Assembly (NCBI GenBank): GCA_005222965.1
Contig: NJBG01000001.1
Span: forward strand, 435,061-499,060
Direction: 5' to 3'
DNA: 64,000 nucleotides
DNA from: Candidatus Woesearchaeota archaeon B3_Woes
Lineage (GTDB): Archaea; Nanobdellota; Nanobdellia; Woesearchaeales; B3-WOES
Below, piece after piece: positions 1-41,740 of this stretch. Below the pieces are notes generated by a model. It did not search any database, was not told where the DNA came from, and worked only from the letters and a program-made list of their open reading frames with translations. Each line of letters starts with the position of its first letter. The first letter of the stretch is position 1. Both the position numbers and the translations under genes were made by a program.

Positions 1-68
1 TTTTTAACAAGTTCTTCTATGAGAAAACCACCCATAAAACCTGTTGCACCAGTAACAAATATTTTCAT
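1..68 (-). CDS. NAD-dependent epimerase/dehydratase (SDR family), N-terminal fragment; the gene continues beyond the window edge
   Basis: The reverse complement of 1-68 translates to MKIFVTGATGFMGGFLIEELVK, which carries a Rossmann GxxGxxG motif. The start codon is the reverse complement of 66-68 and overlaps the stop of the downstream GT4 gene (ATGA). Confidence 0.5.
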   Translation of the reverse strand, partial: MKIFVTGATGFMGGFLIEELVK

Positions 69-1204
69 TTTATATTTGATAACCCCCCTATAGTTTCAAC
101 CATTCTATTCCATGAAAATCTTTCTTTTTCTTTTTTTATATTTTGTTTAAATGGTTTTTCTTTTTCTTCCTTATAATATTTTACTATTTTATTTGCTAAT
201 TCAATTGAATTTTTTGGTGGAACTACAAATCCAGTCTTGTTGTTTTTTACTATTTCTGGTAATCCGCCCACGTTTGTTGTAATCACTGGTTTTCCAAAAC
301 CAAAAGCAATTTGAATTATACCACTATTTGTTGCAGAAAGATATGGTAAAACAACGAGATCTGACGCAGAATAATAATAACCAACCTCATTATCTGGAAT
401 ATATTTATCTACTACACGGATGTTCTTTTTTGCTCCTGTTTTTTTGATTCTTTCAATATATATTTTTTTATCTTTCCAAAACTCTCCCACAATCAGAAGT
501 GTCAAGTCTACTTCCTTCAAAATATGAGGCATTGCATCAATTAAGTACATCAAACCCTTGTAGTCTCTTACATAACCAAAGAAAAGTATTATTTTTCCAG
601 ATATCTTTATTTTTTTTTGAGCTTCTCTCTTACTTATCTCTTTAAATTTAAATTGAACGTCATACGAGGGATGTACTGTACTGATAATTGATTTTGAATT
701 TAAAGAGGGTAATAATTTTTGCAAATTTTGTTTTTCCTTATCTGCATGAACTACAAAAAAATTACCGTCTTTTAAAGCAAATTTTGATAAAATTTTATCA
801 ATTGTTGATTTTTCATGAGGAAGCACATTGTGACAAAGATAGATTATTTTAGAGTTTAGTTTCTTTTTAATATTCCATGTTAAGAATTTGTTTAAAAAAG
901 TGAAATAAGGTGTCCACCAATAAAATAAAATAAAATCAGGATTATATTCCTTTATTTTTTTAAAAGTAAAAAGCCAACTAAAAGGATTTAATGAATCTAA
1001 AAGTTCAATAATTTCAAAATTAGTTCTATTTTCAGCAGAAAGGTCTTTTTGGGATTTTCCTGGGTATATTAGTTTAGGATATAATCTTTTGAAAGATATG
1101 CATTTTAAATCGTGCTTTTTTGAAACAAAATTGCACAACCAGTTATTATAATGAGCAATTCCTCCTTTAAAAGGATATGCAGGACCTACTACACATATTT
1201 TCAT
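65..1204 (-). CDS. Glycosyltransferase family 4 (GT-B, group 1)
   Basis: 379 aa. N-terminus is MKICVVGPAYPFKGGIAHY. C-terminal GT4-like region has EFWKDKK, GYYYSASDLVVLPY and FGKPVITTNVGGLPEIV motifs. Confidence 0.75.
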   Translation of the reverse strand: MKICVVGPAYPFKGGIAHYNNWLCNFVSKKHDLKCISFKRLYPKLIYPGKSQKDLSAENRTNFEIIELLDSLNPFSWLFTFKKIKEYNPDFILFYWWTPYFTFLNKFLTWNIKKKLNSKIIYLCHNVLPHEKSTIDKILSKFALKDGNFFVVHADKEKQNLQKLLPSLNSKSIISTVHPSYDVQFKFKEISKREAQKKIKISGKIILFFGYVRDYKGLMYLIDAMPHILKEVDLTLLIVGEFWKDKKIYIERIKKTGAKKNIRVVDKYIPDNEVGYYYSASDLVVLPYLSATNSGIIQIAFGFGKPVITTNVGGLPEIVKNNKTGFVVPPKNSIELANKIVKYYKEEKEKPFKQNIKKEKERFSWNRMVETIGGLSNIK

Positions 1205-1343
1205 TTATTGTTTCCTCACGAAGTTTATTATAGTTATAACGAACATATCCTTTTTAAATATTTGTAATTGGGTTTTAAAGGTCATGTTCTTTATTCTCAT
1301 TTAAAGGAAGGATTTATAAATTATAATAGATACCATAATTAAA

Positions 1344-2477
1344 ATGATTTTTCAAGCAAAAACTATGTTTTCAGTATTAAAAGCATATTTTTTTAAAAAA
1401 GATAGCCCATGTATAGCAAATTGGATTATAACGAGTCAATGTAATTGTAAATGTCCTTTCTGTGAATTAGGGATAGAAAATAAATACAACCCTAAAGAAG
1501 AACTTTCTACCAAAAGATGTTTTGAAATAATTAAAGAAATGAAAAAAATGGGTATAAAAGTAGTAACTATAAGTGGGGGAGAATCATTTTTAAGAAAAGA
1601 TATATATTTAATATTAGAAGAACTTAATAAAAACGGTATAAAAATAGGAATAGTAACTAACGGCCTTTTATTAAATTCTCTTACGCAAGAAAAAATAAAT
1701 TTATTGAAAAAATATTTAGATACCTTGGTTATCTCACTAGATTCTCCTTTAGCTAAAGAACATAATAAGTTTAGAAGAACTCCTAGATTATTTGAACTAA
1801 TTATGAAAGGGATAGACAAATTACATGACAATGGTTTTTGGAACATAACTTTTGAATCAATAATAATGGGGGAGAACTATAAAAGAATCCCAGAGTTAAT
1901 AAAATTAACAAAAGAGAAAAAAATCAGGAGAATAATGTTCAGACCTATTAATATAATAAGTAATTTTCCTCAGTTATCTCCTCTAAATAATAAAAATGAA
2001 TTTGCAAACTATAATGTTGAAGATATTATAAAATACATTAATTTTGGGATTAAAGAAGCTAAAAAACTTAAAGTTAACACAGATCTTATGTTTAACAAAA
2101 AATGGATTATAGAATATTTTAAAAATTTAAAAGCAAAAAAAGGTTTTTTTCATGATAAGGTAATGTCAAATTATTTTTGCTTTATTCCTTTCTTATATGT
2201 AATCATTAATTACAATGGGGATCTTCTTCCTTGTCTATTATTAGAAGGGAAAGGCAATGTAAGAAACAAAAGTTTGATAGAGGAAAGAAAAAAAGCAAAT
2301 AATATTAGAAAACATTTAGCAAAAAGGAAATTCTATGGTGTTTGTAACTGTTGTTTTGATCAAGCCAACAACAACGTAAGATTTTCGAGTTTGTGTAGTC
2401 CAATAAGAAACTATAAAGCCTTGCCTGCTTTGATGTATGATATAAAATCGGTAGTTAAGAGGTATACTCTAAAATAA
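1344..2477 (+). CDS. Radical SAM protein with C-terminal SPASM/twitch-like Cys cluster
   Basis: CxxxCxxC motif in ITSQCNCKCPFCELG (C-x3-C-x2-C). GGE motif in ISGGESFLRKD. C-terminal GVCNCCFDQANNN...SLCSP matches an auxiliary cluster. Confidence 0.7.
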   Translation: MIFQAKTMFSVLKAYFFKKDSPCIANWIITSQCNCKCPFCELGIENKYNPKEELSTKRCFEIIKEMKKMGIKVVTISGGESFLRKDIYLILEELNKNGIKIGIVTNGLLLNSLTQEKINLLKKYLDTLVISLDSPLAKEHNKFRRTPRLFELIMKGIDKLHDNGFWNITFESIIMGENYKRIPELIKLTKEKKIRRIMFRPINIISNFPQLSPLNNKNEFANYNVEDIIKYINFGIKEAKKLKVNTDLMFNKKWIIEYFKNLKAKKGFFHDKVMSNYFCFIPFLYVIINYNGDLLPCLLLEGKGNVRNKSLIEERKKANNIRKHLAKRKFYGVCNCCFDQANNNVRFSSLCSPIRNYKALPALMYDIKSVVKRYTLK

Positions 2478-2525
2478 AAATCACATTTTATTAATATTTA
2501 TAAATAAACTTATATATCAAATAAA

Positions 2526-3548
2526 GTGGGTGGAGTTAGAATGAAGCCAAAGTTAAAAGATTATTTATCTGCTGGTATAGCTGCTTTAAAGGTTAAGTTT
2601 AATATAAAAGTTCCCTTAAGGGTTACTTACATCGTAACTAATAGTTGCAACCTTAGATGTAAGTATTGTTATGCTGATTCTTTTAGTAAAAAGAGTGATA
2701 TGAACACTTGTCAAGTTAAAAATATGATGAAAGAATTTAAAGATCTCGGTACCAAAATATGGAAATTTGGAGGGGGTGAACCACTTATTAGAAATGATAT
2801 AGAAGATCTTATTGAATATGGAAGAAAATTGGGTTTCATTATTAGCATAGATACTAATGGAACTTTAACTTCTAAAAAAATTCATATACTTAAAAAAGTA
2901 GATAATGTTCAGATAAGTATTGATGGTCCTAAGAAGATACATGACGCGATAAGAGGGGAGGGGGTTTTTAACAAATGTATTGAATCAATCAATATTCTAA
3001 ATAAGATTGGGATTAAACCTATGATAAATTGTGTGATATCTGACAAAAACATTGATTACATAGAAGAGATGGTGCTGTTGGCAAAAAAACATAACGCATA
3101 TATAAATTTTCAGACAGTAGTTCCTGTAACAAATAGGTCTAAAGAAATGATTTCTAAAAAACTTATAGAAAAAGACGTTTTTAATAAAATTATAGCTTTA
3201 AAGAAAAAATATGATTTTATTGCTGTTTCAGATGCAAGTTTGAAGAGATTTCGTGATTACTATTCCGGAAAAATTAAAAAATTTCAAAAGAAATGTCTTG
3301 CTGGGAAAATTTATTGTATTGTTTCTCCATCCGGAGAGGTTTCAAGATGTATAAGTGAATTAGGCACAAAGAAAATTTCAGGATTAGAAAAAGGATTTGG
3401 TAAGGCTTTTAAGAATTTAAGTAAAGATTATGGTTGTGATTGTACTTTTTGTAATTATTATGATTTATCTAATTTATATTCACTAAATCTTAAAAGAATT
3501 ATAAGGGCCTACAATAATTTAAGAAAGGGTAGGTGGATATACAACTAA
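2526..3548 (+). CDS. Radical SAM protein with C-terminal Cys cluster (SPASM/twitch-like)
   Basis: VTNSCNLRCKYCYA carries CxxxCxxC. GGGEPLIRND is the SAM-binding GGE motif. C-terminal CDCTFCNYY cluster. The true start may be the internal Met at 2541 (MKPKLKDY). Confidence 0.7.
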   Translation: MGGVRMKPKLKDYLSAGIAALKVKFNIKVPLRVTYIVTNSCNLRCKYCYADSFSKKSDMNTCQVKNMMKEFKDLGTKIWKFGGGEPLIRNDIEDLIEYGRKLGFIISIDTNGTLTSKKIHILKKVDNVQISIDGPKKIHDAIRGEGVFNKCIESINILNKIGIKPMINCVISDKNIDYIEEMVLLAKKHNAYINFQTVVPVTNRSKEMISKKLIEKDVFNKIIALKKKYDFIAVSDASLKRFRDYYSGKIKKFQKKCLAGKIYCIVSPSGEVSRCISELGTKKISGLEKGFGKAFKNLSKDYGCDCTFCNYYDLSNLYSLNLKRIIRAYNNLRKGRWIYN

Positions 3549-3551
3549 AAA

Positions 3552-4556
3552 ATGAATTATATTGTTTTTGGTGGAACCGGTTTCATTGGAAAGAATTTAG
3601 TTAAAGAACTATTGAAAGAAAAAGGGAAAATAACTTGTTTTGTAAGAAAGAGTAGTGATATTTCAGAATTAGAAAAGTTAAAAGTAAATTTGTTTTACGG
3701 AAATATAAATGATACTAATTCTATTAAAAAGTCTTTAAAAAATCAAGATGTAGTTTTTTATTTAATAGGTGCTGGTTCAATTTCTGCAACTTCAAAAAAA
3801 TCTTATAAAGTATATTATAAAACTAATGTTAAAGGCACGAAGAATTTTATTGAAGCATGCAAACGAGTTAAAAGTTTAAAAAGAATCATTTATTTTGGTA
3901 GTATTTCTTCTATGGGTGTATTTAAAGGAAAAATTTTAGATGAGAATTCAGAATGCAGACCACCTGCTCCTTATCAAAAAACAAAACTTATTGGAGAGAA
4001 TTTAATAAGAGAATTTGGAGAAAACAGTAAAATAATTGTTTCTGTTATTAGACCTTCTATGGTTTATGGTCCTGGTTCAATAGAAGGAGGAAATAAAGAT
4101 ATTTTTAGAATTGCTAAGTTTGCTAATAAATGCTTTTTTCCTTTGTTCAACAATGGTAAAAATTATGTACCCGCAATCCATGTAAAAGATGTTGTTAATG
4201 CTACAATTCTCGCTTCAAAGAAAGGGAAAAAAGGAGCCATATACCTAGTTAACAATGAAGAGAAAGTTACCATGAAAGACTTAGTAAAAATAGTTTCATC
4301 AGAACTCAAAAAGAAAGTTATTTTTCTAAGAATCCCCTTTGTAATAGTTATGATTATGGCTACTTTTTTTGAATTAATTTCTAAAATATTTAATTTTACA
4401 ATACCCTTAACAAGATATAGATTAAGATCTATGACAACCAGTAGATTATTTGACATAAGTAGTACAAAAAAAGATCTTGGATTTCGGCAAACCATCCCAC
4501 TTAAAACAGGAATTAAAGAAACAGTTAGATGGTACAAAGAACAAGGTTTTTTATAA
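3552..4556 (+). CDS. NAD-dependent nucleoside-diphosphate-sugar epimerase/dehydratase (extended SDR)
   Basis: N-terminus MNYIVFGGTGFIGKNLVKELL is a Rossmann fold. YxxxK-type catalytic region (PYQKTK). 334 aa, typical size for this family. Confidence 0.75.
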   Translation: MNYIVFGGTGFIGKNLVKELLKEKGKITCFVRKSSDISELEKLKVNLFYGNINDTNSIKKSLKNQDVVFYLIGAGSISATSKKSYKVYYKTNVKGTKNFIEACKRVKSLKRIIYFGSISSMGVFKGKILDENSECRPPAPYQKTKLIGENLIREFGENSKIIVSVIRPSMVYGPGSIEGGNKDIFRIAKFANKCFFPLFNNGKNYVPAIHVKDVVNATILASKKGKKGAIYLVNNEEKVTMKDLVKIVSSELKKKVIFLRIPFVIVMIMATFFELISKIFNFTIPLTRYRLRSMTTSRLFDISSTKKDLGFRQTIPLKTGIKETVRWYKEQGFL

Positions 4557-4560
4557 AGTA

Positions 4561-5745
4561 TTAATATTTTATGTAATAATAAAGAACTTTAATTAGTTCT
4601 ATTGGATTCATGATAGTATCTAAAAATGATTGACCTACCAAAGGACAATAACAATGTTTTTCTGAAACCCATTTTCTAATTTCTTTTGCGTTTTTTGAAT
4701 ACCACAATTTTTTAAAATTATAACCATAATCTCTAACGTTGCCCATGCTTTTCTTAAACGCTTGTACATTACATATCCATAAATCTCCCCAGGGGTTTAA
4801 ATGTGCATTAGATATTCCTGCATAGCATGTAGACATTCTTTTTCTGTTGATCATAGTTTTTGCTGCCCTTTTATAATAAACCAATCTCAAAGCTTGTGTA
4901 ATCTTACTTAATTTTCTCTTGTTTTTCATATCCTTGATTATTTCATTACAAATATTTTTTACGACTTTATCATACTCGCTACCAGATGGAGTAACTTTCA
5001 AATTATTTGTTACTTTTAAAAAACGTTTATCAGTCACGCTATCTTTCTTTTTTAAATCAACATTAAATAATTCCGCTCTTGTGTCTGCAATTTCATGTAA
5101 GAAATTATCTAATTTAAGATTTTTTTTAACGTAATCATTAATTTTAGGCAAGTCCTTTATATTATTCAAACTAATTGTTGTTCCTGCATCAAGATATAAA
5201 TTTTTATAATTATTTCTTAAGTCTACTAAATAATCATGTGTTTTTAGTAATTTCTTAAAATTGCCAAGTACCCCTCTTATTTCATCATGTTTACGTCCAA
5301 TTCCATCTAGAGATAGTTTAACTGTTAGATGAACTTGAGGTGGGATTTTTTTTAGAATCTCTTCTGTTATTTCTTTAATAGATCTTGGATCCAAACAATT
5401 TGTTGGAAAATGAATAACTTCTGGGTGAATGTATTTACATGCTAAATGACAGATATCAGGTAAATCTTTTCTTAATGTGGGTTCTCCTCCACAAATATTA
5501 AGAAGAAATATATCATCCATGTCTTGAAAAACTTTTTCTATTTCATTTAGTGTTAATTCTTCTTTTCTTTTTTTGGGATTTTTCTTATAAAGTTGCCAGA
5601 TATTACAAGTACTGCATCTAGATTGGCACATATTTGTAACACTAAAGTTAAGTAAGATAGGAAGAGGGGGTTTTACAAGACCATATGAAGCTAATTTATA
5701 CATTATTAATTTTGGAATAATTTTAGACCCATATTTAAGTATCAT
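4561..5745 (-). CDS. Radical SAM protein (third paralog-like rSAM in the cluster)
   Basis: VTNMCQSRCSTCNIW carries CxxxCxxC. ICGGEPTLRKD is the GGE motif. C-terminal Cys residues (CYAGISNAH...CNVQ...HCYCPLVGQ). Confidence 0.65.
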   Translation of the reverse strand: MILKYGSKIIPKLIMYKLASYGLVKPPLPILLNFSVTNMCQSRCSTCNIWQLYKKNPKKRKEELTLNEIEKVFQDMDDIFLLNICGGEPTLRKDLPDICHLACKYIHPEVIHFPTNCLDPRSIKEITEEILKKIPPQVHLTVKLSLDGIGRKHDEIRGVLGNFKKLLKTHDYLVDLRNNYKNLYLDAGTTISLNNIKDLPKINDYVKKNLKLDNFLHEIADTRAELFNVDLKKKDSVTDKRFLKVTNNLKVTPSGSEYDKVVKNICNEIIKDMKNKRKLSKITQALRLVYYKRAAKTMINRKRMSTCYAGISNAHLNPWGDLWICNVQAFKKSMGNVRDYGYNFKKLWYSKNAKEIRKWVSEKHCYCPLVGQSFLDTIMNPIELIKVLYYYIKY

Positions 5746-5749
5746 TGTT

Positions 5750-6913
5750 TCAAACCCTTATATTTTTCATTATTTCGTAATATTTTGATGTTACTTTATC
5801 CCAGCCAAAGGTTGAATTTTTCTTTATAGCATTTTTTGATAATTTATCTTGAAGATTTTTATCTTTTATTAATTTTATGATATTTTCACTTAACAATTTA
5901 ACATCACCTCCTTGAGAGAATATTGCTTCTTGTCCATCTTTTATAAATTCTCTAATTCCCCCAACAGGAGAAATAATAGTGGGTTTGCCAAATGCTAAAG
6001 CAACAAGCAATGGACCACTTATTGTTTGTTCAGTATTATGATAAGGTAAAACGCATATATCTGCAACATCAAAAAATTTGTAAACTTCTTGGTTTGGTAT
6101 GAATTTTGGGAAAAATTTAACAAAGTTTTCTAATCCATTTAGTTCTTTTTCATAAACTTCCATATTCTGCCATAGTTCCCCTGCTATTATCAACCTTATG
6201 TTTTTATCTTCCTTTATCACTTCGTGCATCGATTTTAGAAGATATTTTAAACCTTTGTATTCACGAATATAACCAAAAAACAAAATTATTTTTTCATTTT
6301 CGTTTAAATTAAATTCTTTCTTTAATTCTTTTTTATTTTTCTTTCTCCATTTTGTAAAAAAATCAAATGTTCCGTGAGGAACAACATGGATTTTGTTGGG
6401 GTTTTTTCTATATTCCTTTATCAATCTAAGTTTATTTTGCTCTGCATGAACAATAAAATGATCTACTAAGGAAAAAACTTTTTTTGTGAAAATTCTATCA
6501 AATATTGTTGACTCATGAGGTTCAATATTGTGGCAAGTTAGTATAACTTTTTTTTTTCTAAACACACTATTTAGTTTCAAAATTGTATATTGTAATGGGG
6601 CTAATAAAGGAGACACCCAATGCAAAAACATTATGTCTGCTTTTTTCATGATATTATATGTTTTTATCCATGTAAATGGATTGTACCATTTGATAAAATT
6701 GGTATATTTAGTTTCAAAATGTAACCCATTACCACTTTTAGAAGGTAGTTTTCCTTTATAAAGAAAGGGAGGATACAGTTTATCGAAACCAACAATATTC
6801 AAATTAACTTTATTTTTTAATTGGTTAGCTAACAATACACAGTATTGAACTATTCCTCCTTGAAAAGGGGGATTATGAGTTAACATACATACTTTTATTT
6901 TATTTTTGTCCAT
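5750..6913 (-). CDS. Glycosyltransferase family 4 (GT-B)
   Basis: 387 aa. MLTHNPPFQGGIVQY N-terminus. C-terminal region has GELWQNMEVYEKE, ICVLPYHNTEQTISGPLLVALAFGKPTIISPVGGIREFI (E-x7-E-like GT4 region). Confidence 0.75.
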   Translation of the reverse strand: MDKNKIKVCMLTHNPPFQGGIVQYCVLLANQLKNKVNLNIVGFDKLYPPFLYKGKLPSKSGNGLHFETKYTNFIKWYNPFTWIKTYNIMKKADIMFLHWVSPLLAPLQYTILKLNSVFRKKKVILTCHNIEPHESTIFDRIFTKKVFSLVDHFIVHAEQNKLRLIKEYRKNPNKIHVVPHGTFDFFTKWRKKNKKELKKEFNLNENEKIILFFGYIREYKGLKYLLKSMHEVIKEDKNIRLIIAGELWQNMEVYEKELNGLENFVKFFPKFIPNQEVYKFFDVADICVLPYHNTEQTISGPLLVALAFGKPTIISPVGGIREFIKDGQEAIFSQGGDVKLLSENIIKLIKDKNLQDKLSKNAIKKNSTFGWDKVTSKYYEIMKNIRV

Positions 6914-7145
6914 CTTCGTTATATTGCATATTAATAAATTTAAATAAATAAATTTAGCATTAATTTTAAGTAAAATAAAATTTTAGTTATATGAAATTCA
7001 ATAAAACTTCGCCCCACAACCTTTACTTTTATTAATTTTAAGTACTAAGTTTAAATATATAAAACTATCTTTTTGCAAAATATGCTTTCCTTTATTTGGT
7101 TTTTAAAAACACAAATTATTTAAAACTAAATAATATTCAAAAACA

Positions 7146-7895
7146 ATGGCTAAAATCGGTATTATTGGGGGGAGTGGGTTAGATAACCCAGACATTTTAG
7201 AAGATGCAAAAGATATTGAAGTAAATACGTCTTATGGTAAACCAAGTTCTAGTTTAAAGGTTGGTAAAATAAATGGGGTTGATATTGTATTATTGTCGAG
7301 ACATGGGAGAGAACACACCATCCCTCCGTCTCAAGTAAATTTTAGAGCAAATATTCAAGCATTAAAAGAACAAGGATGTACTCATATATTATCAACAACA
7401 GCCTGTGGTTCATTAAAAAAAGATATTGAAAGAGGAGATCTTATTATACTTGATCAGTTTATTGATTTCACAAAGCATAGATTCGCAACTTTCTACGAAA
7501 AATTTGAACAAAATAACCCCCAACATATACAAATGGCAGACCCTTTTTCATCGAAACTTAGAGAAAAACTTATTAAAACTTGCAAGGAATTGGGATTAAA
7601 ACATCATGAAAAAGGAACTGTAATAACTATTGAAGGTCCAAGATTTTCCACTAAAGCGGAGAGTAAGATGTTTCATATGTGGGGTGCAGATATAATAAAT
7701 ATGTCGATTGCACCAGAAGCGATTTTAGCAAAAGAGGCAGGCGTTCCTTATGCTTCTGTTGCTATGAGTACAGACTATGATTGCTTATTTGATGATGTTC
7801 CTTCTGTAACATGGGAAGAAGTATTAAAAGTTTTTAAGGAAAACGCACACAAAGTTACAAATTTACTTATTGCAACGATACCGAAGGTGAAATAA
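7146..7895 (+). CDS. mtnP: 5'-methylthioadenosine phosphorylase / purine nucleoside phosphorylase (PNP family 2)
   Basis: MAKIGIIGGSGLDNP N-terminus. PNP/MTAP motifs LSRHGREHTIPP, VITIEGPRFST and MSIAPEA. Confidence 0.8.
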   Translation: MAKIGIIGGSGLDNPDILEDAKDIEVNTSYGKPSSSLKVGKINGVDIVLLSRHGREHTIPPSQVNFRANIQALKEQGCTHILSTTACGSLKKDIERGDLIILDQFIDFTKHRFATFYEKFEQNNPQHIQMADPFSSKLREKLIKTCKELGLKHHEKGTVITIEGPRFSTKAESKMFHMWGADIINMSIAPEAILAKEAGVPYASVAMSTDYDCLFDDVPSVTWEEVLKVFKENAHKVTNLLIATIPKVK

Positions 7896-8429
7896 ATGCC
7901 ACATATCGTTAAATCAAAAATAAGAACAGTTCCACATTGGCCTAAAAAAGGGGTTATGTTTAGAGATATAACTACATTACTTAAAGATAGCGAAGGGTTT
8001 AATCGTATGGTTAATCTTCTTGTTGAAAGATATAAAGATATTGAAATTGAATCAGTTATAGGAATTGAATCAAGAGGATTTATTGTTGGTAGTGTTTTAG
8101 CTCATAAATTAAATGTAGGTTTTATTCCAATTAGAAAACCAAATAAATTGCCAGCAGAAACTATTTCAGAAGAATATGAATTAGAATATGGAAAAGATAA
8201 AATTGAGATTCATAAAGATGCAATTTCTCAAGGAAATAAAGTTTTACTTGTAGATGATTTGATTGCTACAGGAGGAACAGCATTAGCTGCATGTAACTTA
8301 ATTAAAAAACTTGGTGGAGAAATAGTTGAATGTTGTTTTATTATTGATTTACCAGATTTGGGTGGCAAGGAAAAATTAGAAAAAGATGGAAATAAGGTGT
8401 TTTCTTTAGTTGAATTTGAAGGCGAATAA
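7896..8429 (+). CDS. apt: Adenine phosphoribosyltransferase
   Basis: PRTase motif [42 protein letters not shown]. 177 aa. Start is adjacent to the mtnP stop (operon). Confidence 0.85.
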
Positions 8430-8439
8430 ATAACTTTTA

Positions 8440-9750
8440 TTATCTTCCTACACTTATATAGTTAAATCCCAGATCTGACATTTCTTTAGGATCGTAAATA
8501 TTCCTACCATCTATAATGTTGGGTTCTTTTAATGAATCCTTTATTTTTTCTTTATCAAGGGATCTAAACTCGTCCCATTCTGTTACTACAACTAAACAAG
8601 AACTGCCTTTTAATGCTTCATAAGGTGTTTTAAAATAATTTACTTTATTTAGAATTTTTTTTGTTTTTTCTTGAGCTTCTGGATCAAAAACGTTTATTAG
8701 AGCACCTTCTTTTTGTAATTGATCTATAACAACTAATGATGGTGCGCCTCTTATATCATCTGTTTTGGGTTTAAAGGATAAACCCCATATTGTTATTGTT
8801 TTGTCTTTTAAATTAGGTGTTAATTTTTTGATTTTTGATAACAATGATTTTTTTTGTTCGCAATTCACTTTGTCTACGGCTTCTAATATGCTAGTTTCAC
8901 ATTTATTTTGTTTTAATGTTTGTATTAAAGCTTGTACATCTTTAGGAAAACAACTACCTCCATATCCGACTCCTGCTTGTAAAAATCTAGGGCCAATTCT
9001 TGAATCTAAGCCCATACCCTGAGCAACTTTCTTAATATCTGCTCCAATTTTTTCTGATAAATGGGATAACTCATTCATAAAAGAGATTCTCGTTGCCAAC
9101 ATAGCATTTGAACCATATTTTATTAGTTCCGCACTTTTGATATCTGTATAGAATATGGGTTTTCCTGTTCTCGCCACAGGTTCATAGATTTTACCCATTA
9201 TACTTTTTGCTTTATCTGAATCAGAGCCTATTACAATTCGATCTGGAACCATAAAATCTTTTATTGAAGTTCCTTCTTTAAGAAATTCGGGATTAGATAC
9301 AACATCAAATTCAATTTGTTCTTTTTGATTTTTTTTTATAATATTCTTTACTAACTCTCCTGTTCCAACAGGAACTGTACTTTTATTAACTATAACTTTA
9401 TAATCATTCATATATTTTCCAATATCTTTAGCAACAGATGTAACAAAAATTAGATCAGCTTCATTATTTTTCCCAGTGGGGGTTCCAACAGCCACAAAAA
9501 TTACTTCAGAGGTTTTTATAGCATGTCGAGAGTCTGTTGTAAAAAAGATCCTCTTTTCATTAAGATTCCTATCAATAATTTCTTTTAAACCGGGTTCATA
9601 TATTGGAATTTTTCCTTTTTTAAGATTTTCAACTTTGTTTACATCTACATCTACGCAAATTACATCATTTCCTAGATCAGCTAAACAGGATCCAACAACT
9701 AACCCCACATATCCTGCCCCAAATACAGAGATTTTCATAATAAATAACAA
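8440..9750 (-). CDS. UDP-glucose/GDP-mannose 6-dehydrogenase family (nucleotide-sugar dehydrogenase)
   Basis: MKISVFGAGYVGLVVGSCLADLGNDVICVDVD is an NAD-binding Rossmann fold. GGSCFPKDV catalytic Cys motif. 436 aa. The true start is probably the internal Met (MKISVF) at about 9738. Confidence 0.8.
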   Translation of the reverse strand: MLFIMKISVFGAGYVGLVVGSCLADLGNDVICVDVDVNKVENLKKGKIPIYEPGLKEIIDRNLNEKRIFFTTDSRHAIKTSEVIFVAVGTPTGKNNEADLIFVTSVAKDIGKYMNDYKVIVNKSTVPVGTGELVKNIIKKNQKEQIEFDVVSNPEFLKEGTSIKDFMVPDRIVIGSDSDKAKSIMGKIYEPVARTGKPIFYTDIKSAELIKYGSNAMLATRISFMNELSHLSEKIGADIKKVAQGMGLDSRIGPRFLQAGVGYGGSCFPKDVQALIQTLKQNKCETSILEAVDKVNCEQKKSLLSKIKKLTPNLKDKTITIWGLSFKPKTDDIRGAPSLVVIDQLQKEGALINVFDPEAQEKTKKILNKVNYFKTPYEALKGSSCLVVVTEWDEFRSLDKEKIKDSLKEPNIIDGRNIYDPKEMSDLGFNYISVGR

Positions 9751-12450: not shown

Positions 12451-13149
12451 TTATTTTACACACAGCTCTGGTTTTTCTTTATAATTTTTACATATTTCTT
12501 GAATTAAATCATCTTTGCCAATTAATTTGTCAAAAACAGAATCTTCTATAACTACAGAAGGTATTTTCGTAATATTATATGTTTGTTTTAATACCCCTAC
12601 CATGGGTTCGTTTCTGAAATCAGCATCTAAAGAAAATACCAAAAGCCTATCTTTTAATTTTTCTTTTAAATAGCTTAATACAGTTGATTGAGCACCACAC
12701 TCCACACATTCTTCATTCGAATAAAAATACAATACAGAGACATGTTCTGCTTGACAATTTTCCTTAATCTTTTGATTTAGTAACCAATACCTTATTTGAG
12801 CCAAAAGATATCCTCTTTTAAGCTCTGTATAGCTTTTTTTGCTTGTTTCTTGTATGTAAAAATCAACTTTTGATTGGGCCTTTCCTACATCATTTAAACT
12901 TGTTTCAAGAATTTTATTAAAAATATGGCAACTTACATTAGTTGCACTTAAATCTAAATAAAGTGATTGTAATTGTAAGCTTTCATAATCTATTTTTTGT
13001 TTATAAGATATTTCTTCTAAGTAGTCTGTTCTCTCTGCTGTTAAAGTGTATCCTACTAAGATGCCTATTAAAAAAATAAAAGAAGTTAATATTAAAGATA
13101 AAGCAAATCTCCTTTTGCTTATTACTCTCTCATAAGTCCCTTTTACCAT
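12451..13149 (-). CDS. Membrane-anchored thioredoxin-like (CxxC) protein, function unknown
   Basis: N-terminal TM (LSLILTSFIFLIGILVGYTL). C-terminal domain with a CVEC motif (SNEECVECGAQ) and alternating beta/alpha character. Last gene of the GT operon. Confidence 0.3.
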   Translation of the reverse strand: MVKGTYERVISKRRFALSLILTSFIFLIGILVGYTLTAERTDYLEEISYKQKIDYESLQLQSLYLDLSATNVSCHIFNKILETSLNDVGKAQSKVDFYIQETSKKSYTELKRGYLLAQIRYWLLNQKIKENCQAEHVSVLYFYSNEECVECGAQSTVLSYLKEKLKDRLLVFSLDADFRNEPMVGVLKQTYNITKIPSVVIEDSVFDKLIGKDDLIQEICKNYKEKPELCVK

Positions 13150-14384
13150 CTTTGTATTTTGCCTCTGATTAAATCAAATATAACTCCAATCCATATAACA
13201 CCAATCATAAAGGGGTAAAGGATAATATAAAAGAATATTGGTTTTTTATTGTGTCTTACTCTTTCGCCAGCTTTATGATGTGCTAAAACTAAAAATATTA
13301 AACCCAAGAATAAGATAACTAAACCATAAAACATGGGGGTAAAATTAAGATTAAGGATCGTATAATCTTTCACCCCTTTAGTAAACAAAGGGATAAAGTC
13401 GAAGTTTATATGGCTCAAATCATAAATTTTATCTATCAGGGGTTTTAGTAATTTCCAAAAAACCACTATTAAAAACAAAGTAACAGATATAAAAGCCGAT
13501 ATAAAAACCATAGGCATTTGTAAAACACCAAAATCTCCATAAGATCTGTTAAAAATCAATCTTCTATATTTAAAAATATTTATCAGACTTCCCTTGTACC
13601 ATCTATTTCTTTGTTTATAAAACTCTAAAAATGTACCGGGTGCTTTTGTAAGGATAGATGTTTCAAGGGTTTGAATAATTTCAAAATTTGCTTTTTGTAT
13701 CCTAATAGCGATTTCCAAATCCTCTACAAGGTTCTTTTCATCAAATCCCCCTAATCCAACAAGCACATCCTTTCTATAAACAGAAAAAGGTCCTGGTGTA
13801 ACATGTACACAATTTAAACGACTCATGACTCTTTTATAATAAAAATTAATTAAATATTCACAATGTTGTATTTGTCTCACAAGAGTTGATTTATGTTGTA
13901 CTTCAATAACAGGCAAAACAGCTGCAATATTTTTTTTATAAAAATGAGGGAGCAAAACCTGGAGCGCTTCTTTTTTAACAATAGAATCGGCATCTAAAGG
14001 CACAAAAAACTCTCCTTTAGCTCTTCTTAGAGCATTATTCATAGCAACGCCTTTTCCTTGATTTTTTTGGTTGATTAAAGTAATATTTCTATTTTTGTTT
14101 TCTTTAATTAGTTTTTCAACAACTTTTTTGGTGTTGTCCTTGCTTCCATCATTGACAACAATTATTTCTATTTTTTCTCTTGGATAATCCAAATCAATAA
14201 CAGATTGGATTGTTTCTTTTATATTTGATTCTTCATTATAAGCAGGCACACAAATAGTAACAAAAGGGAATTTCTTTAGTTTTCTTGGAGCCAACCTAAT
14301 TCCCTTTTCATATAATGTTAACAACCAAAAGATTACAAGATATAAAGAAATAAAATACGCTATAAGTATTATTGCTTTAATCAT
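13143..14384 (-). CDS. Processive family-2 glycosyltransferase (cellulose/chitin/hyaluronan synthase-like, membrane-integrated)
   Basis: N-terminal TM. GT-A motifs ICVPAYNEE, VVNDGSKDNT and DAD (PLDADSIV). Q(R)xRW motif in KQRNRWYKGS. C-terminal TM helices. Confidence 0.75.
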   Translation of the reverse strand: MIKAIILIAYFISLYLVIFWLLTLYEKGIRLAPRKLKKFPFVTICVPAYNEESNIKETIQSVIDLDYPREKIEIIVVNDGSKDNTKKVVEKLIKENKNRNITLINQKNQGKGVAMNNALRRAKGEFFVPLDADSIVKKEALQVLLPHFYKKNIAAVLPVIEVQHKSTLVRQIQHCEYLINFYYKRVMSRLNCVHVTPGPFSVYRKDVLVGLGGFDEKNLVEDLEIAIRIQKANFEIIQTLETSILTKAPGTFLEFYKQRNRWYKGSLINIFKYRRLIFNRSYGDFGVLQMPMVFISAFISVTLFLIVVFWKLLKPLIDKIYDLSHINFDFIPLFTKGVKDYTILNLNFTPMFYGLVILFLGLIFLVLAHHKAGERVRHNKKPIFFYIILYPFMIGVIWIGVIFDLIRGKIQRW

Positions 14385-14387
14385 TTT

Positions 14388-15842
14388 TTACCAAATGTTT
14401 TTCCATATTTCTACTTCGTTTTTGTAATACACACTTTTAAATGTTTGGTTATTTCTAAAAGCATACCATAATCCTTCTTTTTTGTCCCATATTTGACCCT
14501 TTTTCATCTTCTTATCAATAAATATGTATTTAACATTATATTTATTCATTAGTTTGCCTATTATTTCTGTATTTCTTGAATATAAGATGGTATTCGAATC
14601 TTCTAATTTTTGTTTCGCATTATTATAATTAAATAAACCATCTGTTATAACAGGCCTATCTGCCAAGTATTCAATCCAAAATCCTTTGCTATAATGTGAA
14701 AAAACAACATCCTCACTATCAGAATTATCATTTAACCATTCTAATGCTTTTTGTATATCTTCATCAGGTTCAGATACAGAAACTCTTCCAATATAAGAGA
14801 TAGATGAAAACAATAAACCATAGATTAAAAATAATAAAGTGAGTTTTTTTAAAGGTTTTATTTCCCATTTCCCTTTCACAATATATGCAAAAGCAATTCC
14901 TGCAAAAATAGAGAAAATAAAGTTAAGATAAATCATAGCATAATTAAAATGATAGCTAATAAATAATAAAAGCAACATTAAAATATAACTATTTTTCAAT
15001 TTCTGTTTATGCTTCCATGTAAAAGTTATTCCAACAATACCTAAAATTAATGTGAAAATACTTATCCCAACTTCTCCTCCTAAATCAGAAATAAAATCAG
15101 TTATTGTATTCCTTCCAACTAATTCTGTTTTAGAAGCAAAACCTCCATAAAAATAAAGAGGGGCATAATAAATCAATGCTAGAATTAATACAAAGGCCAA
15201 AATAATGTGGGCCTCTCTTTTTTTTGGAACTCCTATTTCTAGTAAAAATAAGAATAAAAATATGATTACAATAACATTAAGTAAATTAAAGATTGTTGCA
15301 ATTAAAAAAACTAACAAAGAATATATAAATAATTTATCAGATTTCAAAAAAAGGTATGTACCTAACAATAATAACATTATAGATATACAAAATTCATTTG
15401 AAGTACCAAATGTAAATATAAAAGCAGGAGATAGCAACAATACAACAAAAGTAAAAAATCTTTGATAAAGATTTATTTTCAATTTTTTAAGTATCAAATA
15501 AAAAAAGATTACTGAAAATAAACCAGTTATTAGTGATATAGCTATTAATGAATTTTCTGGTGTAAAAAAATAGAACAAAGAAGCCAGAACAATATGATAT
15601 GGTTTTGCAACATAATCTCTCCCATCAATTACTAGGTTATCTCTAAACTTTAATCCTTCTTCTAAAACTGTTTCAGATATTCTCATATCATAATATGATT
15701 TTTCTCCTAAAATAATGGGTCTTTCAGAAAGAACTCTTAGAACAGGAACAACAAGTGATGTCATTAATGTTAACAAAACAATGAATATCCACACATTTCT
15801 TGTTATAATATATTTTTTTATCATTTTTCTTCTATAACACAT
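14388..15842 (-). CDS. GT-C fold membrane glycosyltransferase (ArnT/PMT/STT3-like), paralog of the next gene
   Basis: About 11 predicted TM helices followed by a soluble C-terminal domain. The C-terminal domain resembles that of the 15821-17311 product (…LNDNSDSEDVVFS…YNVKYIFID versus …INENTGEKEVILS…YNIKYIYFS). Confidence 0.5.
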   Translation of the reverse strand: MCYRRKMIKKYIITRNVWIFIVLLTLMTSLVVPVLRVLSERPIILGEKSYYDMRISETVLEEGLKFRDNLVIDGRDYVAKPYHIVLASLFYFFTPENSLIAISLITGLFSVIFFYLILKKLKINLYQRFFTFVVLLLSPAFIFTFGTSNEFCISIMLLLLGTYLFLKSDKLFIYSLLVFLIATIFNLLNVIVIIFLFLFLLEIGVPKKREAHIILAFVLILALIYYAPLYFYGGFASKTELVGRNTITDFISDLGGEVGISIFTLILGIVGITFTWKHKQKLKNSYILMLLLLFISYHFNYAMIYLNFIFSIFAGIAFAYIVKGKWEIKPLKKLTLLFLIYGLLFSSISYIGRVSVSEPDEDIQKALEWLNDNSDSEDVVFSHYSKGFWIEYLADRPVITDGLFNYNNAKQKLEDSNTILYSRNTEIIGKLMNKYNVKYIFIDKKMKKGQIWDKKEGLWYAFRNNQTFKSVYYKNEVEIWKNIW

Positions 15843-17311
15843 AATGTTTTGTATATTTCCACATCTTTATTGATAAATACTCTTTCAAAACAATTTTCTT
15901 CTATATAAAATAATTTATCTATTTTATATTCTTCTTTTGCTCTCTTTGAAAAATAAATATACTTTATGTTATATTCGTTCAACAATCTTATTGCTTGTGT
16001 TTCGGAGGTTGTTCGATACATTTTATATACGTTTTCTACTCTTTGGTCTATGTCTTCTACAAACATAAAATTAGAATCAATAAAATTTCTTCTTTTTGCA
16101 ATTGTTGTTATCAAATGACCTTCACTTATAGTTGATAAGATCACCTCTTTCTCGCCTGTGTTCTCGTTTATCCAATTCAGCGCCTCTATCTCTTGATCAG
16201 AATATGATTGTTTTATTTTATTTGCAGCTAAAACCAAGGAAGGTATAACTGAGCTTATTAAGATTAATAAGAACAAAGATAGCGTAATTGTAAGTTTTAT
16301 TTTTTTGTTTCTTGTAAATTTGTACAAAGAAGGATATATTTTTGCAAATAAAAAAGACATCACAAAACCAACAAATATCAAAGCCAAATTTAATTCTATT
16401 AATCTTAACCACATCAAAAAGCTTACAACAATTGCAAAGCTTATTAACAGGTATATTTTTTTGTCTTTTTTTTCAAAGATATATTTATATATAGTATATA
16501 ATCCAAAAGCAAAAGGTAAAATCCCTATTAAATATATTGCTGTTAATATATTTACATCAATAAAATAGTTTTTTAATAATTCTTTTGGGATATTTTGCCA
16601 TAAAATAACAAAACCATGATTCAAAAATACATTCTTAAAAGATACAAATAAAGTCCATACTATTAAAAATGTTGAAAATAATATTGATTCTACTTCTATT
16701 TTAGAGCTTTTAATTTTTTCTAGGAAAAGGAATAGTAAATATATCAACAAAGCAAAAACAAGAAAAATTACAGAAGGTGTTGTGATTCTCAATATCAATA
16801 AAGAAGTTATAAAATAAGCAATATATCTTTTTTCTTTATTTATAATTCTAATCATACAATACAATGCAAAAAACAAAATAGGTAATACGAAAGAATAAAT
16901 GGATATGCTGTTTAATGTTTCAGCAAAAAATATTGGCATAAACCCCGCGATTAAAGCTGTAAAGAATTTGGTTGTTTTATCTTTTGTCAATTGCTCAGCA
17001 ATCAAATAAGCAAGAATAACCATCAAAGAAGCAAATAAATTAGGAAAAAATTTTCCTACAAAATCTATTGGAAATATAAAGTTTAGAGCAGCAAGAGTAT
17101 AATAAAATAAAGGAGGAAGATATAATGTTTTCCCACCATAACTTAAGTCATCTTTGGTCATTGGTAAAAAAGTTTCTTTTATATGTTCTACCTGTCTTAT
17201 GTTATAATACGCTTCATCAGAACTAAATGTTTGTGTTTGAAATGCAAAAAAAAGTCTTGTTCCTAGAACAATAAAAAAGATGATTCCTAAGATGATATAT
17301 TCTTTTTTCAT
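15821..17311 (-). CDS. GT-C fold membrane glycosyltransferase, ArnT/PMT_2-like (lipid-linked sugar to protein/lipid transferase)
   Basis: First extracytoplasmic loop has SDEAYYNIRQ, like the DE(G/A)RY(A)E motif of ArnT/PMT_2 family enzymes. More than 10 TM helices plus a C-terminal soluble domain. Confidence 0.55.
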   Translation of the reverse strand: MKKEYIILGIIFFIVLGTRLFFAFQTQTFSSDEAYYNIRQVEHIKETFLPMTKDDLSYGGKTLYLPPLFYYTLAALNFIFPIDFVGKFFPNLFASLMVILAYLIAEQLTKDKTTKFFTALIAGFMPIFFAETLNSISIYSFVLPILFFALYCMIRIINKEKRYIAYFITSLLILRITTPSVIFLVFALLIYLLFLFLEKIKSSKIEVESILFSTFLIVWTLFVSFKNVFLNHGFVILWQNIPKELLKNYFIDVNILTAIYLIGILPFAFGLYTIYKYIFEKKDKKIYLLISFAIVVSFLMWLRLIELNLALIFVGFVMSFLFAKIYPSLYKFTRNKKIKLTITLSLFLLILISSVIPSLVLAANKIKQSYSDQEIEALNWINENTGEKEVILSTISEGHLITTIAKRRNFIDSNFMFVEDIDQRVENVYKMYRTTSETQAIRLLNEYNIKYIYFSKRAKEEYKIDKLFYIEENCFERVFINKDVEIYKTLCVIEEK

Positions 17312-17392: not shown

Positions 17393-18091
17393 ATGAGGGT
17401 ACCAACTGGGTCTAAAATACTGGACAAGATGCTTGAAGGGGGGTATGAAAAAGATGTTATTACAACAATCTATGGACCAGCAGGTTCAGGAAAAACAGTT
17501 TTAGCTATGCTTTGTAGCATAAATATGGCCAGAACAGGCAAAAAAATAATATATATTGATACAGAAAACTCTTTTTCAATAGAAAGGTTGAAACAAATTG
17601 CTCCTGATTATAAAAAAATACTTGATAATATTGTTTTTTTAAAACCAATTTCTTTTGAAGAGCAAAAAAAAGATTTTGAAAAATTAAAAGATTTAGTAAA
17701 TGATAAGATTGGCTTAATTGTAGTAGATACAATAGCTATGTTATATAGACTAGAATTGGGCCAAAACGAGGAAGTCTATGACGTCAATAGAACATTAGGC
17801 AAACAAATCTCTTTTTTATCTGAAATTGCTCGTAAAAAAAACATTCCTATTTTGATTACTAACCAGGTTTATTCAAATTTTGAGGACAAAGGAAAGGTAA
17901 ATATTGTAGGAGGAGATATATTAAAATATGGAAGCAAATGCTTGATTGAGCTTCAAATAACTCCTCAAAACAATAGAAGAGTTATACTAAAAAAACACAG
18001 ATCACTTTCTCAAGAAAAGAGTATTTATCTAAAGATTGTTCAAACAGGGATAATAGGAACAAGAGAAGAAAGGGGATTTAAATTATTTTAA
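17393..18091 (+). CDS. radB: RadB (short archaeal RecA/Rad51 paralog)
   Basis: 232 aa, with no N-terminal HhH domain. Walker A YGPAGSGKTVLAM and Walker B IGLIVVDTIA. Confidence 0.75.
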   Translation: MRVPTGSKILDKMLEGGYEKDVITTIYGPAGSGKTVLAMLCSINMARTGKKIIYIDTENSFSIERLKQIAPDYKKILDNIVFLKPISFEEQKKDFEKLKDLVNDKIGLIVVDTIAMLYRLELGQNEEVYDVNRTLGKQISFLSEIARKKNIPILITNQVYSNFEDKGKVNIVGGDILKYGSKCLIELQITPQNNRRVILKKHRSLSQEKSIYLKIVQTGIIGTREERGFKLF

Positions 18092-18092
18092 T

Positions 18093-18695
18093 TTATTCCT
18101 CTGTAAAATCTTCAATCTTTTCTTTCATATCTTCTGGTTTTTTAATTAACCCTTTTTTAGTCAAATAGCCACTTGCTAATATCCAGAAAAACAAACCTAA
18201 AGATTTCTTTCCTTTATTATTACATGGAACAACTAAATCAATATTATTTGATTGATTGTTTGTATCACACAAAGCAATAATGGGGATTCCTATTTTTATT
18301 GAATCTTCTATTACATTTCTATCTGGCCAAGGGTCAGTTACTAAGACTACTTTTGGTTCAATAAAATTATCTAACATAGTATTAGTCAATACTCCAGGAG
18401 GATATCTTCCTGCAAAAAAATTACAACCAATTACTTTCCCAAAGGTTTTTACAGATTTCCATGCATTCTCCCTTCTACTAATAACCAAAATATCTTCTGG
18501 CTCAAACTGTGACAATAGATTTATTGCTGTTTTTATTCTCTCATCTATTTTTTGTAGATTTAAAACAGATAATCCATCGGGTCTTGTTTTATATATGAAT
18601 TTAGACATGTATTTTGTCTTAAATTTTGTACCAATATGTATACCTGCCTTTAGATAAGTATCTTGTGCAACTAAAAATTGTTGTTCTTTTGCCAT
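18093..18695 (-). CDS. rps2: 30S ribosomal protein S2 (uS2)
   Basis: LKAGIHIGTKFKT..., GLSVLNLQKIDERIKTA and LVTDPWPDRNVIEDSIKIGIPIIALCDTNN are canonical uS2 blocks. 200 aa. Confidence 0.8.
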   Translation of the reverse strand: MAKEQQFLVAQDTYLKAGIHIGTKFKTKYMSKFIYKTRPDGLSVLNLQKIDERIKTAINLLSQFEPEDILVISRRENAWKSVKTFGKVIGCNFFAGRYPPGVLTNTMLDNFIEPKVVLVTDPWPDRNVIEDSIKIGIPIIALCDTNNQSNNIDLVVPCNNKGKKSLGLFFWILASGYLTKKGLIKKPEDMKEKIEDFTEE

Positions 18696-18858
18696 TCTTA
18701 TTTAACCTCATTATTTTGTTTACCTTTTTTATAACCTCAGGTAACTATGTATATATCTTTTAGCCAAGATAAATACGTCGGTAATATTCAACATAAATTA
18801 AGTTCTATTTAAAAAGCTTTTGGTAAAAAGGTAATATAAAAAATAAAAGAAAAAGATA

Positions 18859-41739: not shown

Positions 41740-41740
41740 T

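Follow-up and report, generated by a model that had tools for sequence, protein, structure and literature searches.

A Cassette of Family 4 Glycosyltransferase, Twitch-Type Radical SAM and SDR Genes in a Woesearchaeota Archaeon: A Candidate Sugar-Tailoring System

Gene Cluster and Gene Order

The window analyzed here, a stretch of 64,000 nucleotides (approximately 27% GC) on the forward strand of contig NJBG01000001.1 from Candidatus Woesearchaeota archaeon B3_Woes, carries near its left end a compact cluster of three radical S-adenosylmethionine (SAM) genes set among genes for family 4 glycosyltransferases (GT4) and short-chain dehydrogenases/reductases (SDR). The three radical SAM (rSAM) proteins, rSAM1 (1344–2477, plus strand; Pfam Radical_SAM, 97.3 bits), rSAM2 (2526–3548, plus strand; 86.7 bits), and rSAM3 (4561–5745, minus strand; 44.2 bits), each with a twitch-like C-terminal module, are encoded by the sole radical SAM genes of the whole window; domains were assigned with Pfam (cutoff for Radical_SAM, PF04055, 29.5 bits), and equivalog calls followed the curated cutoffs of NCBIfam. 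On either side lies a GT4 gene: GT4b (65–1204, minus strand; Glycos_transf_1, 94.5 bits) to the left, and GT4a (5750–6913, minus strand; Glycos_transf_1, 99.6 bits; Glyco_transf_4, 37.7 bits) to the right; the nearest solved relatives of GT4a in the Protein Data Bank (PDB) are MshA and BshA, and its best NCBIfam match is TIGR04157 (104.8 bits). Between rSAM2 and rSAM3 lies a gene for an extended SDR of the HpnA/OleD/3beta-HSD-like type (3552–4556, plus strand; Epimerase, 121.2 bits; 3Beta_HSD, 97.9 bits). The list of open reading frames (ORFs) agrees exactly with the coordinates and arrangement given for these genes in an earlier note on this DNA, made from the sequence alone; that note also called the SDR a sugar epimerase, and here its position beside the rSAM genes stands, and its best-matching families are HpnA, OleD, and SdmB/3beta-HSD-like proteins rather than GalE.

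The genes are tightly packed. The SDR gene starts 3 nucleotides past the rSAM2 stop codon, and rSAM3 and GT4a, separated by 4 nucleotides, form a co-transcribed pair; GT4b and rSAM1 diverge from an intergenic promoter region (1205–1343) in which the small ORFs are AT-rich and unconserved. The gene rSAM2 is called from a GTG codon at 2526, with an alternative ATG at 2541 (MKPKLKDY...); alignments of rSAM2 homologs begin near the latter, so that the true start may sit 15 nucleotides downstream. The cluster extends past the window, since on the minus strand a second SDR gene, with its start at position 68, leaves the window at the left edge (1–68); the approximately 22 codons that are visible, from the ATG at 68, give the N-terminus MKIFVTGATGFMGGFLIEELVKK..., with a GxxGxxG Rossmann motif at its start. 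The start codon of this second SDR gene (beginning MKIFVTGATGFMGGF...) overlaps the stop codon of GT4b in the sequence ATGA, an arrangement of translational coupling.

Core Motifs and Auxiliary Cysteines of the Radical SAM Proteins

All three proteins pass the Pfam Radical_SAM cutoff and thus belong to the superfamily; their pairwise identity is just 27–29% and is confined to the core domain. The CX3CX2C motif begins at residue 33 in rSAM1, 41 in rSAM2, and 40 in rSAM3; its three cysteines (C41/C45/C48 in rSAM2) and the GGE motif, both of which had been read from each single protein in the earlier note, are invariant in each of the three family alignments. C-terminal to the core, each family retains four invariant or nearly invariant cysteines: C279 (in at least 90% of sequences), C297, C334, and C337 in rSAM1; C257, C275, C304, and C306 in rSAM2; and C307, C325, C365, and C367 in rSAM3. 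The first pair is spaced CX12GX4C (i.e., CX17C) in all three families, a spacing typical of SPASM and twitch modules, and the second pair CX1-2C; the overall ligand pattern, CX17-18C...CX2C, resembles that of BtrN. In AlphaFold2 models of rSAM3 (pLDDT 88.2, pTM 0.90) and rSAM1 (pLDDT 91.6, pTM 0.91), a beta-hairpin is predicted between the first two auxiliary cysteines (E313–316/E321–323 in rSAM3, E285–288/E293–295 in rSAM1), followed by the helices that bear the CX1-2C pair.

The Pfam SPASM model (cutoff 21.5 bits) matches rSAM1 with 24.0 bits and rSAM3 with 20.6 bits, below the cutoff, and does not match rSAM2; the CX2CX5CX3C block of the seven-cysteine, two-cluster SPASM domain is absent from all three family alignments. 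With only four conserved C-terminal cysteines per family and no such block, the proteins are of the one-cluster twitch type and not of the two-cluster SPASM type, and alignments and models alike fit a predicted twitch module with a single auxiliary cluster. The extra C-terminal cysteine clusters pointed out in the earlier note are therefore real and conserved, and they align with the SPASM/twitch pattern, yet merely four cysteines per family are kept, and these are twitch-like rather than those of a full SPASM domain. The accompanying premise, that peptides are the normal substrates of SPASM/twitch enzymes, was overstated: the one-cluster twitch enzymes BtrN, MoaA, and SpeY act on small molecules. 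Since twitch enzymes often use such substrates, the occurrence of three of them in a glycan-type cluster is less anomalous than it had seemed. A B12-binding domain, for which the earlier note had suggested a check, was not detected by Pfam in rSAM1, rSAM2, or rSAM3, and all three proteins scored far from the cutoff of every NCBIfam model.

Two structural peculiarities were seen within the rSAM3 family. An insertion at approximately residues 229–250 of rSAM3, modeled with low confidence (pLDDT below 50 at 229–237), is limited to Woesearchaeota-type and other close archaeal members and is missing from bacterial orthologs. In one family member of 745 amino acids (P0476), an intein separates the radical SAM core from the C-terminal cysteine module.

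Distribution and Conserved Neighborhoods of the rSAM3 Family

The three families differ widely in size. Homologs of rSAM1 are mostly from Woesearchaeota-type archaea and few (approximately 19 sequences at 46–100% identity, with the next dropping to 35%), and for rSAM2 the homologs with at least 58% identity number only 6. An indexed search with rSAM3 gave 714 matches; the best 120 of these 714 are all at least 41% identical and come from archaea, Planctomycetota, Deltaproteobacteria, and Thermodesulfobacteriota, and an exhaustive profile search extended the family to 1,771 representatives, each standing for a cluster at 50% identity, with E ≤ 1e-30. The genes rSAM1 and rSAM2 are narrow archaeal additions to a wider rSAM3 cassette. 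rSAM1 appears to co-occur with rSAM3 across genomes; several homologs of the two come from the same sources, and one locus (L170) holds such a pair directly. A description of this GT4–rSAM–SDR cassette was not found in searches of the literature.

Gene neighborhoods were surveyed by applying local hidden Markov models (HMMs) to 88 rSAM3 loci, with the evaluable loci as denominators. In 29 of 42 evaluable loci, rSAM3 has a GT4 gene no more than 150 bp away; within 6 kb, a GT4 gene is found in 12 of 13 loci, a cassette-type SDR in 10, a family 2 glycosyltransferase (GT2) in 7, a flippase-like gene in 6, a B12-binding rSAM gene in 5, and a PMT_2 gene, encoding a glycosyltransferase of the GT-C type, in 4, counts that are indicative rather than exact, since near-duplicate contigs occur among the loci. 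The subfamily of the SDR in the window (at least 280 bits with the local HMM) accounts for 39 ORFs beside rSAM3 in other loci, and a GT4b-type gene was found beside or near rSAM3 in eight loci (L001, L003, L086, L091, L094, L097, L101, and L104). On one contig (P0003), genes for GT4, rSAM3, rSAM1, rSAM2, SDR, and a flippase-like LPG_synthase_TM protein follow each other on one strand, overlapping or closely spaced; with the linkage of the three rSAM genes thus kept in other genomes, their grouping is not due to chance. A GT4–rSAM3 pair accompanied by an SDR gene was seen repeatedly, in Woesearchaeota, in Planctomycetota, and in a bacterial genome of 4.1 Mb, and the dominant order in bacteria is (PMT_2)-GT2-GT4-rSAM3-(DUF218)-SDR-(methyltransferase). 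The analysis of homolog neighborhoods that had been proposed earlier thus gave a conserved synteny of GT4, SDR, GT2, flippase-like, and GT-C genes that spans archaea and bacteria.

Archaeal loci (L001, L003, L086, L093, L169, L170) add B12-binding rSAM proteins, DUF362/ferredoxin proteins, methyltransferases, GT2, and PMT_2; L169, found independently through its rSAM2 homolog, combines the same cassette with genes for a flippase of the Wzx type and for a protein of the heparinase II/III fold. For the GT2 proteins of related loci, the top matches are the polyprenyl-phosphate-sugar synthases AglJ, dolichyl-phosphate hexose transferase, PpgS, and ArnC; the membrane protein of these loci exceeds the cutoff of TIGR00374 (“flippase-like”), and a YdjC (HpnK-like) gene is also present. 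The B12-binding rSAM proteins have HpnJ (TIGR03471) as their best match, with 147.5–290.4 bits (283–290 bits for matches over the full length) against a cutoff of 577.6. In four of the archaeal loci (L001, L093, L169, L170), the rSAM genes are interspersed with as many as three DUF362 genes, of which one includes a fused 2x[4Fe-4S] ferredoxin domain; the DUF362 products may be dedicated electron donors, and the window contains no such gene. In the 4.1 Mb bacterial genome (L084), a prepilin-type N_methyl protein of 120 amino acids (7459–7821) is encoded between PMT_2 and GT2-GT4-rSAM3 and could be a glycosylation target in its organism.

Multi-domain members of the rSAM3 family, collected from the exhaustive search and assigned by Pfam, unite some of these functions in one polypeptide. 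In P0340, an LPG_synthase_TM-like polytopic domain is joined to a genuine rSAM3, which is 40% identical along its full length and keeps the signature motifs; GT2 is fused to rSAM in four proteins (P0424, P0442, P0455, P0480) and GT4 in one (P0451), these glycosyltransferase fusions being more distantly related (28–31% identity); P0429 adds a PTPS_related membrane domain, and P0345 a FAD_binding_6 domain of the ferredoxin-reductase type. Through these fusions, the rSAM3 family is connected with glycosyltransferases, with the membrane, and with a module for electron donation.

Absence of a Peptide Substrate

An alternative role would be the maturation of a peptide or protein, with the rSAM enzymes cross-linking or oxidizing a ribosomally synthesized and post-translationally modified peptide (RiPP) of the sactipeptide or ranthipeptide kind, a glycosylated cofactor resembling mycofactocin, or a protein in the manner of the anaerobic sulfatase-maturating enzyme (anSME). 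The top NCBIfam matches include MftC, StsB, WgkB, PapB, and SkfB-type maturases, and in the fusion proteins the GT2 portion is similar to MftF; the scores of these families are nevertheless only 53.6–122.1 bits, and those of the best RiPP maturase models 53.6–111.3 bits, against cutoffs of 265–650. The gaps in the cluster that could hold a peptide gene are just two (1205–1343 and 6914–7145), and neither contains a credible precursor ORF, their small ORFs resembling random AT-rich sequence. Clustering of the short ORFs located up to 5 kb from rSAM3 across the 88 loci yielded no conserved small-ORF family; the largest cluster came from three closely related contigs and looked like gene fragments. 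The statement of the earlier note that the cluster is devoid of a precursor peptide accordingly extends from the window to its relatives.

The other hallmarks of peptide maturation are missing as well. Pfam did not detect a RiPP recognition element (RRE) or PqqD domain in rSAM1–3, nor a PqqD-like gene, and there is no room for an N-terminal RRE since CX3CX2C starts at residues 33–41; a peptidase, RRE protein, ABC exporter, or sulfatase did not occur in any neighborhood listing, so that the peptide or sulfatase context that would have spoken for protein maturation was looked for in the homologs and not found. Neither a precursor gene nor the combination of RRE and family score that marks RiPP maturases was seen, and the single auxiliary cluster predicted here differs from the two auxiliary clusters of anSME, which would also call for a nearby sulfatase gene. 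A mycofactocin-like cofactor was rejected, with scores far below cutoff and no equivalents of MftA, MftB, MftD, or MftE. A protein of 422 amino acids with an FGE-sulfatase (SUMF1-like) domain (152.9 bits; 26156–27424, plus strand) is encoded 20 kb from the cluster; this could be read as a trace of sulfatase maturation, and no sulfatase gene stands beside the cluster. Taken together, a peptide or protein substrate is highly improbable.

Neighboring MTAP, APRT, and UGDH Genes and a Nucleotide-Sugar Route

To the right of the cluster follow the genes for methylthioadenosine phosphorylase (MTAP; 7146–7895, plus strand) and adenine phosphoribosyltransferase (APRT; 7896–8429, plus strand), both above their curated NCBIfam cutoffs, and for UDP-glucose 6-dehydrogenase (UGDH; 8440–9750, minus strand; TIGR03026, 468.9 bits, well over the cutoff of 189.8). 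The earlier note had linked this neighborhood to the rSAM genes, in particular through MTAP as a salvage enzyme; for MTAP and APRT this link was not supported. MTAP and APRT do not occur near rSAM3 in any other locus of the 88-locus survey, and because neither recurs they were rejected as members of the system and their adjacency is regarded as incidental. Only four other loci (L097, L101, L104, L126) have a UGDH gene at a distance of up to 10 kb from rSAM3; UGDH is a possible supplier of UDP-glucuronate, and its link to the cluster is weak.

A UGDH gene adjoining the cluster would suit a soluble pathway in which the rSAM proteins and SDRs modify a nucleoside diphosphate (NDP)-sugar, such as UDP-glucuronate from UGDH, before the GT4 enzymes transfer it. 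DesII, which acts on TDP-sugars, is a precedent for such chemistry, and the solved relatives nearest to the SDR are the oxidoreductase 3wj7, UDP-glucuronic acid 4-epimerases (6zl6; MoeE5, 6kv9), NSDHL, and dTDP-glucose 4,6-dehydratases; furthermore, neither a flippase nor a GT-C gene was found in the window. Against this pathway, the fusions with the polytopic flippase-like domain (P0340) and with the PTPS_related domain (P0429) locate the enzyme at the membrane, the most tightly linked partner of rSAM3 is a glycosyltransferase, often overlapping or fused, while a nucleotidyltransferase is not consistently present, and the best-matching families of the SDR are lipid-associated (HpnA, OleD, SdmB) instead of GalE or RmlB. 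An NDP-sugar substrate is a conceivable but doubtful solution.

Proposed Function

The synteny, the fusions, and the lack of a conserved small ORF, of an RRE, and of a sulfatase support the suggestion of the earlier note that radical chemistry is directed at a sugar or glycan, not a peptide; the cassette probably tailors a sugar in a glycoconjugate pathway. By sequence comparison, its conserved core is GT4a, rSAM3, and the HpnA/3beta-HSD-like SDR, and the expansion of this core in the present Woesearchaeota lineage consists of rSAM1, rSAM2, the second GT4, and the second SDR. More specifically, but only as a tentative possibility, the rSAM3 family, with its members in anaerobic bacteria and in DPANN and further archaea, may be the obligate, O2-independent partner of a GT4 and a dedicated SDR in remodeling a lipid-linked sugar at the membrane. 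In the mechanism considered most likely, the GT4 enzyme would set a sugar from a nucleotide-sugar donor onto a membrane-bound acceptor, probably linked to polyprenyl or dolichyl phosphate; rSAM3 would then split SAM at its CX3CX2C cluster and take a hydrogen atom from that sugar, and its fully cysteine-ligated auxiliary [4Fe-4S] cluster would accept an electron, leaving a keto-sugar. In dehydrogenase-type twitch and SPASM enzymes (BtrN, SpeY, anSME), the auxiliary cysteine site is associated with electron transfer, and BtrN and SpeY oxidize a C-OH group of a sugar or cyclitol to a ketone. If the residue were a uronate, rSAM3 might instead yield a decarboxylation product as in BlsE. The SDR, presumably a keto-reductase or epimerase, would reduce the keto intermediate to an epimerized or otherwise remodeled sugar, with rSAM1 and rSAM2 contributing further, lineage-specific radical steps; in the relatives, the GT2 resembling dolichyl-phosphate (Dol-P)-hexose synthases, the flippase-like protein, and PMT_2 may carry the product to an extracytoplasmic acceptor. 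The order of these steps is conjectural, and oxidation or epimerization in particular, argued by analogy, is held with far less confidence than sugar tailoring as such.

Several observations weigh against the lipid-linked scheme. Its substrate and chemistry are argued by analogy; the PDB matches of the SDR are mostly nucleotide-sugar enzymes, which would suit the NDP-sugar route equally well; and some near-duplicate contigs enter the statistics of the 88 loci. Flippase-like, GT-C, and Dol-P-hexose synthase genes were not found in the 64 kb window at the sensitivity of phmmer, so that a lipid-linked route in this archaeon draws on the related loci and on the unseen left flank of the cluster. 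BlsE, the nearest solved structure, is reported with one [4Fe-4S] cluster, and rSAM1–3 keep four extra conserved cysteines. Amphipathicity was not found in the N-terminal helices of the rSAM proteins, and membrane anchoring through these helices was dropped as an explanation; a hydrophobic segment at approximately residues 253–270 of the SDR recurs with moderate hydrophobicity in most orthologs and counts as no more than weak evidence.

If the lipid-linked scheme holds, the cassette would be the radical SAM equivalent of DprE1/DprE2 and a widespread, unrecognized route to unusual sugars in the surface glycans and glycolipids of anaerobes; in its Woesearchaeota form, three radical steps of this kind would be combined. 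To our knowledge, sugar-modifying radical SAM enzymes have come almost wholly from antibiotic pathways (BtrN, DesII, BlsE, AprD4); a large family in surface glycan or glycolipid assembly would bring radical carbohydrate chemistry into the primary envelope biogenesis of anaerobes, including DPANN archaea, which are little understood and attach to hosts by means of their surfaces. The GT4–rSAM–SDR core is compact and occurs in bacteria that may be cultivable, which makes the question directly testable, and the fusion proteins offer ready hypotheses on partners and location. As a caution, proteins with SPASM or twitch modules should not be annotated automatically as peptide maturases.

Other Genes in the Window

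Further to the right, a minus-strand operon (13143–17311) begins with a processive-type GT2 of 413 amino acids (Glyco_tranf_2_3, GT21, chitin-synthase-like), followed by proteins of 484 and 496 amino acids without a Pfam match, and may be a separate polysaccharide synthase system; its GT2 gene (13143–14384), the only other one in the window, was considered as the missing Dol-P-sugar synthase of the cassette and rejected, being of the processive type and lying in a separate operon past housekeeping genes. A second minus-strand group (35803–46458) encodes a protein of 1,978 amino acids that carries thrombospondin type-3 repeats together with three CxxxCxxC motifs, and then proteins of 454 and 1,118 amino acids without a Pfam match; a separate ORF of 975 amino acids (28136–31063) is likewise without a match. 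These large proteins are probably surface proteins and candidate targets of glycosylation. The gene for ribosomal protein S2 is flanked by two genes of the RadA/Rad51 family, a short paralog of 232 amino acids and a full-length RadA of 363 amino acids with an HhH domain (17393–19950). Archaeal replication genes follow near the right end, namely MCM (50775–52811), the large PolD subunit DP2 (55092–58607), a DP1-like small subunit (58612–60180), and Cdc6/Orc1 (60206–61417), and a replication origin may lie near 61.4–62 kb.

Comparison with Known Systems

Structure searches with Foldseek returned superfamily-level matches only, in which peptide and sugar enzymes were mixed. The closest PDB structure to rSAM1 and rSAM3 is BlsE (7vob), the cytosylglucuronate decarboxylase of blasticidin S synthesis, with an identity to the rSAM proteins of just 12–16%; rSAM1 does not belong to the corresponding family (TIGR04466, 53.8 bits with a cutoff of 400). 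Acting on cytosylglucuronic acid, BlsE removes the carboxyl group of the glucuronide, and it has been described with a single [4Fe-4S] cluster (PMC3715490); its substrate is a soluble intermediate of a nucleoside antibiotic, outside the glycosyltransferase and flippase context of the rSAM3 family. When the family profile was compared with PDB sequences, the alignment ended short of the BlsE C-terminus, and a correspondence of the auxiliary cysteines could not be read from it. In their architecture, rSAM1–3 share with the twitch enzymes BtrN and SpeY and with the SPASM enzyme anSME a radical SAM core and a C-terminal beta-hairpin module with a fully cysteine-ligated auxiliary [4Fe-4S] cluster, predicted here from conserved ligands and models.

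The hopanoid side-chain pathway (HpnA, HpnI, HpnJ, HpnK, HpnL) and the archaeal calditol synthase Cds combine a glycosyltransferase with a radical SAM enzyme that acts on a lipid-bound hexose, as the present cassette would, and HpnJ has been proposed to ring-contract hopanoid-bound glucosamine (PMC13459092). This precedent suggests a further alternative, the remodeling of membrane-lipid head groups, in which a lipid would be glycosylated and its sugar head converted, for instance into a cyclitol through contraction of the ring, as in the cyclitol ether of bacteriohopanetetrol (BHT) formed through HpnI, HpnK, and HpnJ; the end product would be a membrane glycolipid and not a glycan that is passed onward. 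HpnA (TIGR03466) is the top NCBIfam match of the SDR, the B12-binding rSAM proteins of related archaeal loci match HpnJ best and along its full length, flippase-like (HpnL-like fold) and YdjC genes occur in these loci, and rSAM3 is fused to a membrane domain in P0340. Unlike those of a hopanoid module, however, all scores are far under the equivalog cutoffs (138.2 bits against 367.65 for HpnA, in addition to the HpnJ scores given above), rSAM1–3 are of the twitch type and not of the B12 type, and squalene-hopene cyclase (shc) does not appear in any rSAM3 locus listing. Neither the SDR nor the rSAM proteins of the window, which have no B12-binding domain, thus belong to the hopanoid families; an HpnJ-like or other B12-binding rSAM gene is absent from the 64 kb window, and the neighbors resembling AglJ, Dol-P-hexose synthases, PMT_2, and Wzx-type flippases in related loci point to an external acceptor. 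DPANN archaea, moreover, usually lack lipid synthesis of their own. Conversion of a lipid head group as the final product is unlikely.

The lipid-linked scheme preferred here has its nearest parallel in three-component glycosylation via polyprenyl-phosphate sugars, a concept that includes epimerization of the DprE1/DprE2 type (PMC11127046) and comprises the GtrA/B/V, ArnC/E/F/T, and GT136 pentofuranose systems. A GT2 resembling Dol-P- or undecaprenyl-phosphate-hexose synthases, a flippase, and a GT-C protein accompany the cassette in relatives (e.g., L001, L084, L086, L130, L165, L169), and none of these genes is found in the window, though the unseen left flank could hold them; the three-component systems have no counterpart of GT4, the tightest partner of rSAM3. 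An oxidase acting with an SDR reductase on a lipid-linked sugar would, by analogy, parallel DprE1/DprE2, with the difference that the oxidase here would be an O2-independent radical SAM enzyme and not a flavoenzyme as in DprE1. From its sequences, the cassette resembles both three-component glycosylation and hopanoid sugar tailoring and appears to be a member of neither. Radical SAM enzymes that tailor sugars are known; what is unusual here is the probable setting in primary glycoconjugate assembly and the very large, uncharacterized family to which rSAM3 belongs.

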